Below, one piece after another: positions 49,655-64,000 of a stretch of 64,000 nt of DNA (positions within the stretch are counted from its first letter, which is position 1; each line of letters begins with the position of its first letter). Origin of the DNA: Balanoglossus misakiensis (lineage: Eukaryota; Animalia; Hemichordata); contig CM082586.2 of the NCBI GenBank assembly GCA_040954595.2, positions 711,123 to 775,122 on the forward strand, in the 5' to 3' direction. A model generated the notes under the pieces. It was not told the DNA's origin. It did no database searches and saw only the letters and a program-made list of their open reading frames with translations. Made by a program: the position numbers and the translations under genes.

Positions 49655-51883
49655 GGCGGTGGTCAAAATCTCTGAGAGTTTTACAGTAACGTCATATTTC
49701 AACACTGTCCGTATCACTTCTGATCGACTTCACGATGATTCACAGTCAGACCTACCTGGAGTGGTACAAACAATCACTTCCGTGATTTCTGCATATCGTC
49801 GTTGATGGCGTAGTTTGACTGACCTATGAGTTCGACAGGTCATATAAATCTGCATATTGCAAGCCTTGCACCTGTTGTTTGTCAGTAATTGCGCCAATCA
49901 GCTTCCACATTGCGAAAGTGGATGTCGACGCCCTTGTATAAACCATAAATGGCTGATGATTAGGGTCTGTGGTCGCCATGTCTCTCTCAGTCTCACAATT
50001 TCTGCTTCTGGTCGGAGTCACCATTCAAGTTACCTGGTCTCCAAGTCACTATTTCTGTTATCGTGTGTACATTATCTGTTGTTGGACTTGTTCTGGCAGG
50101 CATCAGTCAACGTTAGCGGCGGATATTTCATGTAGCTGGGCCTACATGCTCCACGTGTGTGCAAGGACGGCTGCATCCCAACCAGGCAGCCAGTCTGGCA
50201 GACAGATGGGTGTTTTTGATTTCCAGTTACCAGCAAGTAGACTTGTAGTCAGCGTCCGAGTTACCGGTCACAAGGCAATCACCGTGTCACCAAATAACAG
50301 GTATGCATACTTGTTTTGTATTAATTCTGGGGACTGTTACGCTGTTTCTGTTGTGAGTTTACATTGTGTGTGTATGTTATGAGAGAGAGAGAGAAGGGCC
50401 GAATAGTTTATTATTTTATGAGATGCGCATGCGGCATGATGGGCACCATCTTATGCCGGAGAAACGGTTGCCAAGCGATAAAATCTCTAGTCACCTTGTT
50501 GATTACGCCTTTCAACAAGAAGATGTAAGTGAAAAAGTTGATAAATGATTGACGCAACCAATTTGAGAAAATACAGCTTCATGTAATCATCCTCAAAACA
50601 GCGCTTAAAGCAATTGAGCGAATAATTCAATCATTTTCGAACCATTAGCAAATCTGTCTAAGTCGATTGGGACTTTGGCCTGACGTCAACATCGTAGTGA
50701 CCTGAAATGACCTTTCGATTAGGGTACCCGAGGAAAATGCTGCCTCCCCAAATGTTCAAGCCCCCCCCCCCGGCCACCCATTCCTTCTGAGTGTATGCAT
50801 GTTTTCCAGAGAACATGCAGGCTTCAAAGAATTCTTGCAACGTGAACTGCCAGTGCATACTGCGCATGTCTAGTTTCCCTATTCAGTTGTACCAACGAGA
50901 AATGTTTCACAAGTGCGCTGAGTAGGATGACACTCTGTTCCAAATTACGCTGTACTTTTATTGAATCTCAAAATCGTCACACTTCACTACAGAGCTATTA
51001 TCCAGGTTCATTGAAGGAGATAGTTTTACACCTCTGAATCGGCGTTTAAGAACTTTTAATCACAGTCCGGATTAAATTTAGCAAGCGATTACGTAGATCA
51101 TTAGACGCAATTTCGGATAACATGACGCCTATACTTTATCGGTTTTGCCGCCAATTGTCGCCTTCTTTGCAAACACGCAAATAGCACTTAAGGCTCTGTA
51201 CATGGATGAGGAATAAGTGTTAAGGTATTTACTGAGTAATTCCTGAAAGTATCTTTACGTGTTTGCTTGAGTGTCACTTGTATGGTTATTCTTATTTTTG
51301 AATCACTGTTTTATTTATTGTACACAAGAGGCAAGATACTATTAGTTATTTTACTGAAAATAGAATTGTTTCGTCGATCGATGACTAATATTACGTCATG
51401 CAATGTGATACGCGTGTTTCTCAAACAAGTAGACTACCTAAGATTATATTGAAGTTACAATATGTCGAACGTTGAGAGCAATAGTTTGAACAGCAAGCGA
51501 ATGTATAACAGAAATCTTGGAAAGAAAACCCCAAAGGTTATCCAGGACGTCATGTATTTGTGCGCCAGTACTAAATTTGCAGAGGACAATTTGTGCGTAT
51601 GTTGGCAAATCTCCTATCAGGAACATGCAGAGTAACTATGAACAAAGCAGACGCGATGAAAACAAGATTCCACACTATTACCATTGTCAGAATCAATTTT
51701 CTTCCACAAAGAAGCCGATCGAAGCGACTTCAAAGATGATAGCTCACGGTTCATTAAATGGACGCTGATAATAAGATGGGGTGTATCACCTCGCTTTAGA
51801 AGTGAAGAAATATATTTTAGCATTGAACTCGGTATCGATACTGAATCGCAGCTGTCGTTACGAATTGTTCGAGAAAGAATGCA

Positions 51884-53316
51884 GGCCCGGGATATTGGAA
51901 GCTCAATACGAGTCTACTCAAGGATGACAACTATAGAAGAATAATAAACAACGTCATAACACAAGCCATAACAAATTATCAAAAACTTTATGATTATAGA
52001 AGTTTATTAGATCTAATTAAGGTGAAAGTTAGAGAAGCAAGTATTAAATATGGAAGGGAAAAGGAAAAATATAAAAAAAAGAGACAAGCAATAATTCAAG
52101 AACAGCTAAAAGAAATTGAAGATAAATTACTTAGAGATAACAGGGGAAAGGAAGACCTAATAAACATTTATGAAGAAAAAAAGAGGGAACTAACTCAGCT
52201 ATATGTAAATAAACTACGTGGGATTCAAATTAGATCCAGAGTGAAGTGGTACGAAGAAGGAGAAAGAAACAGTCGTTATTTCCTGGGACTAGAAAAGAAA
52301 AGATCTAGAGCAAAACATATAAACAGGTTGATGGTTAATGATAAGGTTATTACAAAGACAGATGAGATATTAGCAGAAGAAAAGGCTTTTTATGAAGATC
52401 TTTATAAATCCAAGAGTGTTAATAACAGTAAAGTTAAAAAATACATAAATGACATTAAAATAGAGTCTAAGATCAAAGCAAGTGAGGCATTATTGTGTGA
52501 TGGTAAAGTTTCTGAGGAGGAATGTCTAAAAGCCATGCGCAGAATGAAAAGCAACAAAACACCAGGACCAGATGGCATTCCTATAGAATTTTACAGAGTG
52601 TTTTGGAAAAATATAGGTAAGATAGCAGTAGACGCATTTAATGAAGGTTATAATAAAGGTACGCTAGCCAATTCTCAGTGTAATGGTATCATAACGTTAA
52701 TACATAAAAAGGAGTGTAGGCTTAATCTAAAAAATTGGAGGCCCATATCGCTGCTCAATCATGATTACAAAATATTATCATGCGTGTTAGCTAATAGACT
52801 AAATCAGGTTATACCCAAGTTGATTAGTACTGACCAAGTGGGTTATATTAAAGGACGTTTTAGTGGCCAAAACGTTCGGCTTATTCAGGATATTATCGAC
52901 TTCTCGGAGAAACGTAACAAGGGGGGAGCAATTTTGTTCCTTGACTTTTGTAAGGCATTTGATACTGTCGAACACAATTTTATGTTCTTAGCTCTGGAAA
53001 AATTTGGATTAGGTCATTCTTTTATAACATGGATGAAAACTATCTATTCCAAGTGTAATAGTTCCATCATAAATAATGGTTGGATAACGCCACTTTTTAA
53101 TCTACAAAGGGGTATTCGACAGGGATGTCCCCTGTCTGCGATTTTATTTTTAATAGTAGCAGAAATTCTTGCAACTGTAATTAGAAATGACGACGAAATA
53201 GAGGGTTTCAAAGTTAATAATTATAAAGTTAAGATCACACAATTAGGTGATGATATGCAGGTATACATAAGCAAAGAAAAATCTCTCATGCGTTTACTTA
53301 ACTTGATTGATGAGTG
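51884..53316 (+). mobile_element. L1/Tx1-clade LINE ORF2 fragment (linker plus N-terminal part of RT), truncated at both ends
   Basis: GPGYWKLNTSLL at 51884 in frame with IRSRVKWYEEGERNSRYF, KTPGPDGIP, NWRPISLLNHDYKIL, LDFCKAFDTV, GIRQGCPLS, QLGDD; very A-rich sense strand. Confidence 0.92.
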
Positions 53317-54488
53317 CAGATTCCATTGTTGTATTCTGCTCACATGTCACCTATAAGAACATTACCGATAATTGAGATTAGACTAAAAATTGCAATTTTT
53401 TTGTATAGGAATTGTCATCTATGTCCATACCTGCATACACACGTGGCTTATATCCAATCCACTGCAATCTTGGTTCAAATTGAAATGACTATTGCATTAA
53501 CTATAATCCCAGGGTGAAAGACACACAAATTCCAAAGTAAATCATCAGAACTACTGCGACAATCGCAAAACCGCCTAATTCTAAGGGTTGTCATGGATAT
53601 TAAACTGCTAATGCATTGGATTGTTGAAATAAGAATGCTAACTAGATGAATGTGTAACCAAGCATGAAATGGCAGATATTCCTTCGCGAGTATCTTCAAC
53701 AGACTTCTCTGCTAATTTATATTACGGTTGGCGCTTTTGCTTAGTTTATAGTGAGTCGCATTTAAATCATGTAAAGGTTTGTGCAAATCACACAATGATA
53801 TTTTGTATTCTACGAAAACTATTTTTGGCCAGCATCGGCCTATATCTTTCGTGACTTTCCTTGGATAATTTCCTACTTTATTTTTATTTTCTTCTTTTGT
53901 CATTGTTTCGTGTTTTTTCTGGGGAAAACTCGGACATGATACTGTGCGTCACGAGACAGAGGGGCGGAGAGAGAGAGAGAGAGAGTGGGGAGGGGGGGGG
54001 AGGGAGAGAGCACTCCTGTCCGATGACAGACACAAGATGCGTGCGCAACTGATAGTTTTTGAATAAATTAAACTGTTTCACGAACATCCAGATAATAAGA
54101 TGATGATTGGCCATACTCTGTGAATGTGATGACTTGCCTTTGATGAATACATTATTCACAAGAGACGTGAGAAAATTTATCATTTGGAAGTGTTAAAGTT
54201 TCCACGCTGGATAAATATTTTGCCGTTGTCAGTGGATCTCGTTCCCTTGTGGTATCTTCTCCACAATTGAGAGGAAGGCGATCAAAGAATAACGAATCAG
54301 TCTCCTTTGATGAATCTGACCGAGTTGTTGCCATTCAACAAAATTGACGAAAAGAATCGTGGACAGATCAGTCTTCGTACGGAAATGATAACAGCCTTAT
54401 GTTGCGCCTGTACACCTCGCTGCTTGTGATGGATGTATGCACGCACCGATTGTTTCTGATGGCGTACAAGAGATGAAGCACAGACAAT

Positions 54489-55448
54489 ATGTTGAACAGT
54501 GTACAACCTACTTTTGTCGTTTTCTTGACTTTGGTGATAATCTGTGGAAACATTTTGAATCTACTTGTCATCAGGAAATGCAAAGATATCCCTTCTGTAC
54601 CACGGTATTTTATGTCGTCTTTGGCTGTGGCGGATCTTGGAATAGGCTTCATATCAATCTTCGCTATTTATCCATCTATCACTGGTGTTTGGCCGTATGG
54701 AGAGGTCGTCTGCTTCATCATCGGCGTCCACTCGCACACTTTCTGCTCCATTTCCATCGTTTCTTTGCTTTTTGTCAGCATTGACCGTTACATCTCCATC
54801 AACTGGCCTCTAGACTATCATCGCTATATCACAGACAGGAGAGCTATCGGTCTGATAATTACAGAATGGGTTGTCTTAGAAACATACGGGTATTTACTAG
54901 CGGTCATACAAGACTGGGATTTTTATCACTTTAATTCGGGCGCTTTGACTTGTGTTCCTGGCTATGGAAAACCCACTTATAGGGTTTTCACAATCGTTGG
55001 CTTGGTGAGTTTTATTATTGTACCAACTATCATCATCATGTATATTTACGTACGTATTATGCGAATCGTGCGCCGACACAAGTCTCAGATCTTGGAGCTC
55101 AACACTCCGAAGGACAGTGATCAAGTTGAAGTGAGAAAGAGAAGCAATGAGAATTTCAAAGCAGCCAAGATGTTATTCGCAGTTTCGGGAGCATTCGACA
55201 TCGCCTGGTATCCGTACGGTATTTCGACTTTCTACCAAGCCGTATCGGGATCACCTGTGCCACAGTACGTCCACTTCATAACGACATGGTTGGTGTACTC
55301 TAACAGTTTCTGGAACGTGCTGATCTACACAATCATGAACAAGAAATTTCGAAGCACTGCTTGGCTGTTACTCAAGAGATCAACAAAATGTGGCGTTTCT
55401 CAGATCGAGCCGACAGAACGCCACTCCGACCAGGGATCGGTGTGTTGA
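54489..55448 (+). CDS. Intronless class A GPCR, GPR21/GPR52-like orphan
   Basis: Seven hydrophobic segments; GN, SLAVAD, SIDRY, WYPY, and SNSFWNVLIY (NPxxY lacking Pro, as in GPR21/52). Confidence 0.88.
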   Translation: MLNSVQPTFVVFLTLVIICGNILNLLVIRKCKDIPSVPRYFMSSLAVADLGIGFISIFAIYPSITGVWPYGEVVCFIIGVHSHTFCSISIVSLLFVSIDRYISINWPLDYHRYITDRRAIGLIITEWVVLETYGYLLAVIQDWDFYHFNSGALTCVPGYGKPTYRVFTIVGLVSFIIVPTIIIMYIYVRIMRIVRRHKSQILELNTPKDSDQVEVRKRSNENFKAAKMLFAVSGAFDIAWYPYGISTFYQAVSGSPVPQYVHFITTWLVYSNSFWNVLIYTIMNKKFRSTAWLLLKRSTKCGVSQIEPTERHSDQGSVC

Positions 55449-56472: not shown

Positions 56473-59400
56473 ATGGAAGACACTAAAAGTCTCGAGAAAG
56501 AACCATTGCTGGACAGATCCAAGGTAACCCCTGATAGTCTATTGCAATGTCAAGTTTACGACGACTTGCTACACTGTCCTACTTCAGAATTTAAGGCTTA
56601 CAGGTATTTTTATCAATGACTAGTTGAGTTGCCATATCGGCTGACAGTTTGTCGCGGAAGTGCTACGTGATGGTACTTCTAAGCGTCCACATATTGGAAC
56701 CTTTTCATAAATTATAGACATTTATGTAAATTATTTATCTGTACAAACGTATAATTATCACTCAGGTTGTACATGGTTTAATGTGTTATGAGTGACGCAG
56801 CTGAGTGGACATATCATGCGCATACCGAGTAAACGTGAACAACACCCTTTGTCCTAAGCCACGTGAAAGGTCATTTGCGTCCTGCGGTTGCCTGTAACAG
56901 AATTTAGGGAGTGTCCAGATTTTACTTCAAGGGGGGGGGGGGGGGGGGCGGAGAATTTTCCAATTTTGGTGTAATATTTTATGGCCCCCTTAGACTTTTC
57001 CCCATTGGCCCTTGTGTATAAATAAATCTGTAAACGATCTATTTCAGGAAGATGAAGCGAAAGATGACGTCATAGTGCTGGAATCGCAACATGGGAGTTT
57101 CAAGTACAGAATTAGCATGATACTGTCATGTATAGGCTGCATGGTCGGCACTGGCAATATCTGGAGATTTCCACGAATAGCAGCAAACAATGCTGGCGAT
57201 GATGGTAAGTAAGAATGCGATCGTCTTATGCGCAATTTCGTGTGTACAAACATTCTACGTCCAATTCAAATGTTCTGCACGTTTAACGTTAGATGCTTTA
57301 ATCGTATTGTATTTTTTACCTGCAGGGGCTTTGCAATTCTTATTGGTGTGGGTCATGTTTTTATTCCTCTGGTCAATACCGATGATCCTTATAGAGTACG
57401 CCATTGGAAGATTTGTGAAGAAAACACATGTGCCTATTTACAGGGATCTTATTGGACCCAAAAGCATGTGGTGTGGTGGATGGATAGTTATCGTTGATCT
57501 TGGAATCACGTAAGCATTACTATTAAATTGAACTGTGCATGTTGCATTGGTTCTATTTCAGATGTTGTCGACCAAATTTCTTTTTTTATATGCTAATAAC
57601 TATCGCATGCGCACTTGGGTGGCCAACCGAAGCCAACTTGTCAGCTCAATCCACGTGATCGAATACGTCATGAAAGATGTGTCAAAGCCAGCTGTCATTA
57701 TCCAATCGATCGATAAGTGTGCGTGTCAGAGACAATAGAATAAAAAAGGAGAACGCGTATGAATTGACTAATTATTCACAGGCGAGAAATCCAGCTGTAA
57801 TCTTCTGCCAAGTCGCGTACTTATACAACCTATCTTACCTCCACAGATGTTATTATACAGTCGTCTTGGGCTGGTGTTTTTATTATCTCTACTACACGGC
57901 TGCATATCCTCTGCCTGAAGACGAAGATACTAGTCAACAAATATTTGACGAATTTGCCAAGGTGTTTATTACACTCAGATTATTCTATGGTCCAAGTCAA
58001 CGTGTTCTATATTTTGATATTTTACAGGCACTGGACGAATTCATTTATTATTTCATTCAATAGGCGGGTGTTGTAAATAATATGCATACCAATCACGGTG
58101 CTTATTGTTACAAATTTTGCATTTTACTATTTCAGGAAAGTAACGTTCCCTTGGCAACACACGCGGTCGCCATAATCCTTGCGGGAATCACAGTATTATG
58201 GGGCGTGAAAAGCATAGAGATGTTCAACACTGTTGTAGTACCAATATTTCTCGCGATTATCCTGGCGACTTTTATTTGGTCCTGTACACTTCCTTATGCA
58301 GCAGACGGCATCAAGTTTCTGTTCACCCCGGATTGGAGTAAGTAATACGTGTATTCGTAAATTCAACTTCTAATCTAAAATAGCCAAAATCCAATCTTTA
58401 TTTATACGTAAATTTTACTGAATTATCACACTGATTCTTGTTTCATGGTACATCGTTTAACTGTAGCAAGGAACATTTGTTCTTAATTTTCATTGTTCGT
58501 AAAGCTCCACGTTTCACCAATACCATTTCATTGGTTCATTATTCAAGAATTCACCTTGCAACCAATTTGTTACATGCACATACGAAACCAACGCTCCATA
58601 CCGAAGATTGTTAGGTGGCATGTCGTAATGTAATTTCAGATGGCTTGGGTAATTCCAAGTTATGGATAGATGCTGCCAGTCAGAATGCGTGGGATACTGG
58701 AGCAGGGGCTGGTCTCTTTGTAGCCTATTCTGCCTATATGACAAGGAGACACGGGATTCTTAAAATGGCAACGGGCATCCCGCTGATAAACAACGTAGTC
58801 AGGTAAACATGGTCTGTTTCAACTAAAATAAACACTGTTTATTCTTAGACTCACGCTAACATTTTCATTTCATTAATTCTCTGTTGCTATGACATCTAAC
58901 ATGCGCTGTGGTTTAATCTTAAAGGTAATAAGCTAAATCCGAATTAGAATTGGTCATTTCAAGTTCATTGTTGTTGTATTGTCATCATACATTTCGAAAT
59001 TCAAACGGATCGTTGAACCAAATTTTATACACAAATTGTCGCAGAAATGATCAAATGAAGAATTCGACTTTCAGGTGAATTAGGCAATGCTCAATTGTGG
59101 GTGGATGCAGCCTCGCAGAATGCATGGGACACAGGGGCTGGTTTGGGTGTCTTTGTTGCCTACTCAGGCTACATGACTGCACGTAATGGAATCGTTCGAT
59201 TCAGTTTTGTCATTCCTATCTGCAACAACATTGTCAGGTAAAACATTTTTCCTCCATGATTACGTTCATAAAAATTAAAAGTTGGCCGACTAACAGTAGT
59301 ATCTTGCAACTATACTAACGCATATTACTAACAATGATAATTCTCCTTGTACAGAACATGTAACAGACATTTCATTAATTATTTATTTTTAGAATGTAAT

Positions 59401-60920
59401 ACTATACTTCTGTTTATAAAAAAAATCACGATGTAAACATAGAGTCCAGATTAACTCATGATGTCTTTAATATATTTTTGCGTCTACAGCTTGGTATGTG
59501 GTATGATGACTTTTGCTACCGTTTTCTCAGTGCAAACACAAGCAAACGCCACCAAAGAAGAAATAGTGCATCTTTTACGGGACAGTGGAGAGGCAAACAC
59601 TGGACTGACGTTTGTGTGGTAAGAAACATGGATAACTCTGGTCTTTTGACAAATAGAATCCTTTCAGAGTGTGATAATGGTTATTGTAGTGTATTTTCTT
59701 TAACTGTAATCTACATGTGCTTACTTTCAAGGCTGCCAATCCTTTATTCCACGATGGACGCTGGAAGGGTCTTGGCGGTGTTATTTTTTCTGGCGTTGTC
59801 GTTCGCTGGTCTGAGTTCTCTTGTAGCCAATGTGGAACTCATCGCAAAATCATTAGTAGACTTTGGTGGTAAGTACAATAATACTAATACATTTGATGCG
59901 ATTATATGTAAAGTCATCATTTCGTTTGTGTGCGTATTAGTAAAGAGTTGGGTTGGCTAAACTATTTTTTTTCCTTCAACAGTGAACAGGAAAGTTAGCG
60001 TTCTTCTGGTTGTGATATTCGTCTTCGGGTTCGGATCCATATCAGCGCTCGACATGACTTTCCTCATCAATCAGGTAATTTTGATTTCTCCACTTATAAA
60101 CATCAACAAACATCCAGCCAAGATTTACAAAAGTTTACTTTACATCAGTGACAGCCAAGATTAATTTTCTGTTTCCTTTGCCTGCAGGACTTCGTATGGA
60201 GCTTTGCTCTCATGATCTCAGGCGCAATGCTTCAGTACTTGGTTATCCGCTACGGTACAACTCTCTTCCGAGCCAGGTTGATTAATGAATACAGTGAGGA
60301 CGATTGGTACCTTCCAAAAATGTGGGAATGGCTTGTGAAGTATGTACAAACGTCTAAATTTATTACATGCTTTTGAAAATAATATTTTAAAAACAATACT
60401 ATTTGTAGAGTTTTTGTTGCTATTTATAATTTATATTTCCTGTAAATTACTCGTAGGTTCTTGTTTATTCATTGTGTGTAATGATTTCCGTAGCTGATCA
60501 TTCACGTCGATTTTGCAGGTACATAGCACCATTTGAGGCCATCGGTCTTCTTGTATGGTTTTCTGTCAATCAAATCACAACCAACCCTGACGATTGGTAC
60601 AAGATGGGTGAAACCACTCTAATGTCGTGTCTAGTACAGGTAGGTTTTCTTTTCTGTCATTTTCATAACACGAAAACCTGAAATATCAACTTCAACCACA
60701 AAAAAGATTATAACACCGAAATATGCTTTATGAAGGCATTGATGAGGTGATGGGTAATCTTCTTTGTCGACAGTGGCTTGGAGTGATGTTGGTCTTGATT
60801 GTCATCAACTTGATCTTTGTCTATTGCTACTTACGACGTTCACCCTCTTATCAAGTATCACAATCTCCACCAAAGACAGAACAGCAACGAGAATGTATAA
60901 AGAATGATCAGTTCAATTGA
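56473..60920 (+). CDS. SLC6/NSS sodium-dependent transporter, prokaryote-like subfamily
   Basis: Exons 56473-56523, 57048-57204 (GCMVGTGNIWRFP), 57326-57509, 57847-57961, 58136-58337, alternative 58640-58802 or 59075-59237, 59490-59618 (TGLTF), 59732-59868 (LSFAGLSS), then four more to 60920. Confidence 0.92.
58640..58802 (+). CDS. SLC6 alternative TM6-TM7 exon A
   Basis: 163 nt, phase 1 to 2: GLGNSKLWIDAASQNAWDTGAGAGLFVAYSAYMTRRHGILKMATGIPLINNVV. Confidence 0.88.
59075..59237 (+). CDS. SLC6 alternative TM6-TM7 exon B
   Basis: 163 nt, phase 1 to 2: ELGNAQLWVDAASQNAWDTGAGLGVFVAYSGYMTARNGIVRFSFVIPICNNIV. Confidence 0.85.
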
Positions 60921-62442: not shown

Positions 62443-64000
62443 CTATGTGATAACGCCTGGTATACTATCAGTTGGGTCTTCTCGTCCAACCAGATAAAAG
62501 GTCAAAAGTTCACCTTTACCTTTGACTTTCACCAATCCTCTTTTCTCGAATTTATATCCAAAGGGTTTGAGAATTTTCATTGCTTCTTCGACAACCTGAA
62601 AAATGTGTAAAAACAAGGTCAGTTTTAATATTTTAGTCACTTTTCCACTGTTCATAGGCAGATGAGTTATGCAGTTGTAACGAACGTAACGGATAACGTA
62701 TGTCGCTGGTGGCGCCCCTATGCACAGGTGGGATATCATGACGTAATTCTAGGAATGCCCTTCCATTGTGGCCCTTCACACGTGCACATGAGACCCACGC
62801 CCGACTGGAATCTCAAGAACCAGCAGAGGTAGTCCGGAAACCCTACAAGTACTGTGTTATATCAAGGTTAGTAGCCGGTAATTACTACGCCAGTCTGTAC
62901 ACCATGTCAGTATTTACTCCCTTACCTGAATGTGGCCAGCTTTTCCCGTACTTTCCATACGGCTCGCAACATTCACCGTGTTTCCCCAGATATCATAATG
63001 CGGTTTTCTTGCCCCGATAACGCCAGCCAGAACAGGTCCGTGGTTTAGCCCTGCAATGTAGAGGTCAGGATGCGCGAATCAAGGAAATGTCAATTCTCAC
63101 GTAAGGCGCTTAGTGACTTAATTATTCGCTGCAAAGGACATGAGCAAAGATGTAGGCTTATTGATTAGCACATTCAGCGCAGAATTCTCCACTTTCACTT
63201 ACCGATTCTAAGAATGAAATTGTTGAAGGATTGTTGGTTGATTTTGTCCAGAGATTCCCTGAGGGCGAGCGAGAATTCCACCAGATCAGACAAATGAGAC
63301 CATCGTTTTCTAATGTCAGATGATTTGAGATGTTCAAAGTCTGTAGACATTCCTGAAGCTGCCATATAGGTACTGGATATTGTCTTGATTTTGGTGATTG
63401 TTTTGAAACGAGGTTCATTCAGGAGCTGTAATGTAATGTAATATAATATAATATATGAGGGATAGATATAGACTGAGACAGACAGACCGTCTCATACTTC
63501 TCCAAATGAAATAACCACTTAACACAAAACGCTTGATTTGTACCTACCCCGTCAAAATCAGAAATGACTTCGTTAAGGAACCTCAGACACTCGACGCCCT
63601 GATTATTGATTAAGTCTTCAGTATAGAACTCAGAAAAATTGGGTATGGACGCAAAAATGACGCCAACTTCATCATAAGAATGGCTGTATAACTCCTGCAG
63701 GATCAGAATCCAAATACAGTAATTATTTTTCAAATTTATTTTAAATGTGAAGAAAGAGTGATCTCAGAAAGAGGGATAATTACCATGGCAACTTAAAACA
63801 GTTTTCAAAGCAAAATAAACAAATGCAGCAGTAAATATACGATTTGAACGTTGGTGACGCTCTAAAGTCTCTTATAGACATACCTCGTCTTTCCTTTTCG
63901 TACCCAAGAAATGCTTTGCGACATGGCCTGGTAATATATTCATTATTAATGCCTCATTTTTTCTTCTCAATTCGTAAACCTCGTCTTTCTGATTCTTAGC
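62443..64000 (-). CDS. ADCY3: Adenylate cyclase type 3-like, C2 catalytic domain (3' part)
   Basis: Exons 64000-63884 ([13 protein letters not shown]), 63694-63548 ([14 protein letters not shown]), 63425-63203 ([20 protein letters not shown]), 63050-62926 ([24 protein letters not shown]), 62595-62443 ([12 protein letters not shown]). Confidence 0.92.

Follow-up and report, generated by a model that had tools for sequence, protein, structure and literature searches.

In a 64,000-nucleotide stretch of the acorn worm Balanoglossus misakiensis (contig CM082586.2, positions 711,123 to 775,122 of the forward strand; hereafter the window), our gene model places a 12-exon, MhsT-like gene of the SLC6/NSS transporter family at 56473-60920 on the + strand. 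Its sixth exon slot is filled by either of two paralogous exons, A or B, that encode transmembrane helix 6 (TM6) and the first half of TM7. Going by the sequence, we on balance favor the view that this one gene gives rise to two sodium-coupled amino-acid transporters of 549 residues each, which by prediction would favor substrates of different size or bind them with different affinity. Use of both exons is highly probable, and their mutually exclusive use is strongly indicated because of the reading-frame logic, the selection seen on both copies and the swap of the same exon in annotated isoforms of two crinoids. If both exons are indeed used, a measurable difference in substrate or affinity between the isoforms is rather probable.

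Anatomy and constraint of the exon pair

Exons A (58640-58802) and B (59075-59237) have 163 nucleotides each and are separated by an intron of 272 nucleotides. Both have AG/GT borders and run from phase 1 to phase 2, with the donors CAG/GTAAAC in A and CAG/GTAAAA in B. Being adjacent, homologous and equal in length and phase, with the same residue at 35 of 53 whole codons, they classify as tandem exons. Their likeness is limited to the exons and their borders, and the surrounding introns are non-homologous. All other exons of the gene are single, and a tblastn search of the 64-kb window gave no second SLC6 gene. With A alone or B alone, the 12-exon model yields an open frame of 549 residues; in translated splice models, inclusion of both exons leads to a stop after residue 291, and skipping of both to a stop after residue 241. 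The first-pass annotation of this DNA had described the lengths, spacing, shared phases and near-identical donors of the pair together with a frame shift on double inclusion or skipping, and all of this holds. From gene model, alignment and domain scan, exon 6A encodes the end of extracellular loop 3, TM6, intracellular loop 3 (IL3) and the first half of TM7, with Gly-Ala-Gly in the unwound TM6 loop. Its paralogue 6B has Gly-Leu-Gly there and is nearest to the exon of the acorn-worm orthologues.

The two copies match at 101 of 163 nucleotides (62% DNA identity), and DAASQNAWDTGAG is identical in both proteins. Among the 53 whole codons, 14 are identical, 21 differ synonymously and 18 non-synonymously. 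Third positions differ in 34/53 codons and second positions in 10/53 (Fisher p 4e-6), as do 12 of 16 four-fold sites, and the proportion of synonymous differences (pS) is saturated at 0.81 vs a non-synonymous proportion (pN) of 0.26. If the junction codon is included, the two isoforms have 19 residue differences. These are distributed unevenly: pN reaches 0.40 over the last 21 codons vs 0.16 over the first 32, and residues 268-289, that is IL3 and the first half of TM7, hold 12 of the 19.

An excess of third-position differences could stem from constraint on one copy only, and exon A was therefore tested alone. Its 17 departures from the exon of the Ptychodera flava orthologue concentrate in columns that vary within the family (mean entropy 2.15 vs 1.46 for random columns, permutation p 8e-5, 55 family rows) and touch 1 of the 15 highly conserved columns, i.e., those conserved in at least 90% of rows. 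In a neutral simulation, in which copies drifted to 70% identity or less were counted and pooled over five distances, an open frame and 14/15 conserved columns were kept in 42 of 66,451 runs. From the column pattern of exon A and this simulation it follows that both exons look protein-coding and constrained. This is in agreement with the earlier claim that an identical protein core with many third-position differences reflects selection on both copies, as silent sites are saturated and conserved columns are kept.

Relatives in crinoids and acorn worms

We compared protein models within 30 clusters of relatives, which had 105 listed members besides the 30 representatives. After exclusion of 16 short or other-domain rows 89 were compared, and 84 of these comparisons covered the exon; one cluster was represented by 15 of its 62 members. 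Two crinoids show equal-length isoform pairs that differ in this very exon. In Antedon mediterranea, isoforms X1 and X2 (XP_071958674.1/XP_071958681.1) differ at 28 of 55 positions inside the exon and at 0 of 496 outside, and the pair of Anneissia japonica (XP_033119992.1/XP_033119993.1) at 26 of 55 inside and 0 of 406 outside. At the site of residue 260, discussed below, X1 has Ser in both crinoids, and X2 has Phe in Antedon and Trp in Anneissia. The X1-like and the X2-like form are each conserved between the two species. We found no paper on these isoform pairs.

Other searches were less productive. Among shorter homologous fragments we found 4 proteins, none of them closely related, and 22 of the 94 proteins from a search of representatives were inspected and held no exon pair. 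In the top two-stretch match of the latter, a bacterial-type fragment repeats one segment exactly, and four further candidates were read-through introns; several representatives read through an intron after the WDT motif. Out of 504 candidate stretches, a metagenome scan yielded 1 locus (L001:968-1028), a eukaryotic homologue whose exons are arranged differently: the exon begins at the same phase-1 acceptor, but an extra intron follows the WDT motif.

The closest relative of the window gene is P. flava XP_070534344.1, with 75% identity outside exon 6. In a gene tree built without exon 6 from 34 of the fetched rows by a quick method, the two genes are sisters (SH-aLRT, the Shimodaira-Hasegawa-like approximate likelihood-ratio test, 99), and both belong to a clade of 11 acorn-worm genes (SH-aLRT 98) that adjoins an echinoderm clade. 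The exons of three acorn-worm orthologues are 84%, 76% and 75% identical to B and 69%, 59% and 56% to A. In the exon tree B groups with the orthologues' exon (99/95), and A is unplaced on a branch of 0.31 vs 0.05 for B. Among seven fixed topologies, duplications inside the acorn worms scored best and a duplication shared with crinoids worst. None of the seven was rejected under two models (p of the approximately unbiased test 0.098-0.89), nor did any of five clade tests reject. As judged from these sequences, independent duplications in acorn worms and crinoids are favored.

The wider subfamily is bacteria-like, with the database label YhdH/YocR/HI_0736-like, and occurs in sponges, corals, molluscs, flatworms, echinoderms and amphioxus. 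Its identity to a separate bacterial clade, which has Trp at the residue-260 site, is about 40-45%. In acorn worms the gene is represented by at least four groups of paralogues, which carry M, W, H and N/Q at the position equivalent to F259 (from P0001, P0004, P0005, P0009, P0011, P0013, P0017, P0022, P0023 and P0045), and several paralogues within one species may be gene-clustered. Elsewhere in the subfamily, oyster models reach about 760 residues (P0057, P0150, P0196), P0057 has an extra PF01738 domain, and one cluster contains 231-residue 'usf-like' proteins; together these point to a fusion or read-through with a neighboring hydrolase gene. Equal-length isoforms X1/X2 of Branchiostoma (P0135 vs P0137; P0067 vs P0138) differ C-terminally only, at 16-20 residues, possibly by alternative last exons.

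The substrate pocket and the predicted effect of the exon swap

The gene product is likely a sodium-coupled amino-acid or amine transporter, as predicted from conserved site residues. Its relatives carry the Pfam domain SNF (PF00209). In a scan with this profile exon B scored 27.6 bits (cut-off 27), exon A, as a fragment, stayed under the cut-off at 20.7 bits (E 2e-4), and the P. flava orthologue P0001 reached 159.7 bits. The best solved relative is MhsT of Bacillus halodurans (E 2.4e-34; profile E 2.8e-71). The predicted model of the P. flava orthologue (predicted local distance difference test score 89) matches LeuT in Foldseek with a template modeling score of 0.73-0.83 and has a helix break at 257-261; judged on this model, the orthologue has a LeuT fold with an unwound TM6. 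Like MhsT, the orthologue has a Gly-Met-Gly loop. MhsT and LeuT, in contrast, are bacterial and exist in a single form, and the subfamily of the B. misakiensis gene carries Asp where LeuT has T254 and Asn where MhsT has L328.

The exon aligns to MhsT, SIT1 and dDAT without gaps. This places residue 260, which is Ala in A (codon GCT, 58708-58710, + strand) and Leu in B (TTG, 59143-59145, + strand), on the Met of the MhsT loop, M236, which has been equated with LeuT F259 (bioRxiv 10.1101/2020.04.03.022970). LeuT numbers were carried over by a fixed offset from F259 and are to be read as inferred positions. In the P. flava orthologue model the site falls where the helix is interrupted, between TM6a (242-256) and TM6b (262-267). 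The initial proposal that the A/L residue is the F259-equivalent is thus supported by both alignment and model. LeuT F259 was described as a volumetric sensor, with Trp at the equivalent place in glycine transporters (PMC6689989). In MhsT, the exchange M236F was reported to abolish uptake of aromatic amino acids and to leave Leu uptake unchanged (bioRxiv 10.1101/2020.04.03.022970). Across the 55 family rows, no other of the 54 exon columns varies as much as column 260 (S 14, W 11, M 10, A 6, G 5, L 2, H 2, others), although the motif around it is nearly fixed.

We propose that both exons would be spliced in B. misakiensis, one per readable message, and that messages with both or neither would be removed by nonsense-mediated decay. 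The pocket of isoform A, with Ala260, would be roomier than that of isoform B, in which Leu260 is near the Met of MhsT and the orthologues, so that A might take larger side chains or bind small ones more loosely. The two isoforms are predicted not to differ in ion coupling. The first-pass annotation had proposed different substrate or ion specificity. The substrate part is a reasonable extrapolation from the pocket; the ion part finds no support because the Na1- and anion-site residues are identical in A and B.

Several points weigh against two transporters of different substrate preference. We know of no substrate for the YhdH/YocR/HI_0736-like SLC6 subfamily, and our literature search, largely outside subscription journals, gave no paper on it. 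The variability of column 260 could mean tolerance, and the Ala/Leu change is milder than the crinoid Ser/Trp. Since IL3 and the first half of TM7 hold 12 of the 19 changed residues, the isoforms may instead differ in kinetics or regulation. The exon swap was seen in 2 of the 84 comparisons, both crinoid, among the members listed. Furthermore, the crinoid pairs are database models from the automatic annotation in RefSeq, where isoform models usually rest on RNA reads. As to the exon pair in relatives, two crinoids have annotated isoforms that swap this exon, possibly after independent duplications, and in the protein annotations of the P. flava and two Glandiceps orthologues (XP_077989849.1, XP_077989850.1), all single-member clusters, a B-like exon and no A-like exon was seen. 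In MhsT, finally, specificity was reported to be set also by pocket features other than M236 (bioRxiv 10.1101/2020.04.03.022970).

Both exons might be used with the same substrates, the isoforms differing in turnover, gating, trafficking or regulation via IL3 and the start of TM7. We regard this as doubtful but worth serious attention. It would agree with the position of 12 of the 19 differences at residues 268-289, with the higher pN of the last 21 codons (0.40 vs 0.16 in the first 32) and with the identity of the F253-, T254- and S256-equivalent pocket residues in A and B; the exon swap of SLC7A2 likewise alters capacity and affinity for one substrate (PMC12714141). However, only one pocket residue does change, and it is the residue whose influence on substrate size is best documented; it changes in both crinoid pairs, too.

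It is improbable that exon A is just a remnant, or included only very rarely, and that B alone is used in practice, although orthologues are annotated with the B-like exon only and A has both the longer branch (0.31 vs 0.05) and a weak acceptor pyrimidine tract (10/20). The tract of B is equally weak (9/20), and A has kept its frame, both splice sites and 14/15 conserved columns despite saturated silent sites.

Still less probable is a swap that alters ion coupling, i.e., Na1 affinity or chloride dependence as in NKCC2. The exon does encode Na1 residues of TM6 and TM7, corresponding to LeuT T254 and N286 (PMC10945697; for the role of E290 see also bioRxiv 10.1101/2025.05.20.654092), and second-shell TM7 residues differ between A and B. 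Yet A and B share the Na1- and anion-site equivalents Q251, D255, N287 and S291; all four crinoid isoforms keep the first three of them, and Q251, D255 and S291 are invariant in 78/78 aligned homologues. We hence rejected ion-affinity splice variants of the NKCC2 type. An assembly artefact that joined two haplotypes or paralogue fragments has next to no probability: Branchiostoma models P0083 and P0140 do have near-identical internal repeats of part of TM6, which are probably assembly or annotation artefacts, but A and B have a DNA identity of only 62%, their silent sites are saturated, the introns around them are not homologous, and the remaining exons are all single.

As a side aspect, the subfamily has an invariant Asp, residue 255, at the LeuT T254-equivalent (78/78 rows) and Ser at the E290-equivalent. 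Asp255 may supply the charge given elsewhere by chloride or E290, which would make these proteins chloride-independent carriers.

Known systems, possible splicing control and surroundings

The crinoid X1/X2 pairs are the nearest parallel to two transporters from one B. misakiensis gene. They involve the same subfamily and the same exon, their equal-length isoforms are identical outside it, and the F259-equivalent is switched; the crinoids, however, have Ser vs Phe/Trp and 26-28 differences, and the B. misakiensis gene Ala vs Leu and 19. SLC7A2 shares the LeuT-type fold with SLC6, and tandem-duplicated, mutually exclusive exons tune this amino-acid transporter as CAT-2A or CAT-2B. In contrast to the gene studied here, SLC7A2 belongs to a different family and both of its forms have the same substrate class. 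Its exon swap was reported to give about 3-fold capacity with lower affinity (PMC12714141). In SLC12A1 (NKCC2), alternative copies of exon 4, which encodes a membrane helix, change binding properties (PMC6873903), and the supplement of a human tandem-exon catalogue has three alternative exons for it (PMC8373072). There, TM2 and ion affinity are concerned, unlike in the B. misakiensis gene with its unchanged direct ion ligands. The principle that tandem exons tune transporters is thus already established by SLC7A2 and SLC12A1.

For SLC6 itself, the first-pass annotation had presented such an exon pair as undescribed. In print we found no case: a literature search, largely outside subscription journals, brought up no article in which TM6 exons of an SLC6 gene are mutually exclusive, and the same human catalogue supplement has 0 occurrences of SLC6, with 5 of SLC7A2 and 8 of SLC12A1 (PMC8373072). 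Convergent tandem-exon events in ion transporters have been reported (PMC9741552); a supplementary file of that paper, and the text and six supplementary files of PMC7954323, contain none of six SLC6-related terms, all of these files being small and possibly without the full event lists. The claim does not extend to databases, as the crinoid isoforms were already in RefSeq.

We may tentatively speculate, as a possibility that falls short of probable, that the TM6-TM7 exon is a recurrent SLC6 specificity cassette, duplicated separately in acorn worm and crinoids. In each case the volumetric-sensor residue would alternate between a small and a large side chain, and one gene would be switched between substrate classes by regulated splicing. 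If true, such a cassette would achieve the same diversification as the whole-gene duplicates of acorn worms with M, W, H and N/Q at the site. The exon pair would also add SLC6 to the transporter families with recurring tandem exon duplication. The F259 position has so far been studied almost only through mutants of bacterial models. Natural isoform pairs that differ in one exon (Ala/Leu; crinoid Ser/Phe and Ser/Trp) would provide a clean test of the role of the TM6 loop in substrate choice of animal SLC6 proteins, and a handle on an uncharacterized bacteria-like subfamily that ranges from sponges to amphioxus.

Regulated choice between weak exons, combined with decay of frameshifted messages, would be the likeliest arrangement for exclusive use. 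The weak acceptor tracts of A (10/20) and B (9/20) compare with 10-17 in constitutive exons, and with a branch point close to the acceptor of B, the 272-nucleotide intron would leave too much room for steric hindrance alone to enforce exclusion. A CATTTCATT-like element, found post hoc as a candidate splicing-regulatory motif, occurs once in each flanking intron (58524-58543, 58866-58885 and 59368-59387, + strand); we take its TCAT core to resemble a Nova-type site. In these three introns TTCATT is enriched about ten-fold (7 vs 0.72 expected; corrected p about 0.04, post hoc), and YCAY occurs 22 times vs 15.3 expected (p 0.06). In a check for Dscam-type docking/selector pairing, the best inter-intron duplexes did not exceed shuffled sequences, 8, 9 and 14 of 30 of which did as well; one hand-picked intronic pairing of -14.2 kcal lies between the 1st and 5th percentile of background. 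Downstream of exon B there are three ACTAAC copies at 59289-59332, presumably resembling a QKI/STAR or branch-point motif.

The remaining exons of the gene model, all on the + strand, are arranged as follows. Exon 1 (56473-56523) encodes the 17 N-terminal residues, its probable start codon being set by the frame and by N-terminal likeness to the P. flava orthologue P0001. Exon 2 (57048-57204) encodes TM1 with, by alignment, a Gly at the position that marks amino-acid carriers, exon 3 (57326-57509) TM2 and the start of TM3, and exon 4 (57847-57961) TM3 and extracellular loop 2. The pair is flanked upstream by the constitutive exon 5 (58136-58337; TM4-TM5, phase-1 donor) and downstream by the constitutive exon 7 (59490-59618), which completes the Ser291 codon and TM7. 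Exon 8 (59732-59868) encodes TM8 with the Asn aligned to the MhsT L328-equivalent pocket position and is followed by exons 9 (59983-60074), 10 (60188-60339), 11 (60519-60639) and 12 (60774-60920), the last with the stop codon.

Just upstream of the transporter gene, at 54477-55448 (+), lies a single-exon frame for a rhodopsin-family G-protein-coupled receptor (7tm_1, E 2e-44), and a frame for a retrotransposon-type reverse transcriptase is found at 51845-53356 (+) (RVT_1, E 8e-28). The last exons of an adenylate/guanylate cyclase gene, at 62443-63763 (-), are convergent with the transporter gene.
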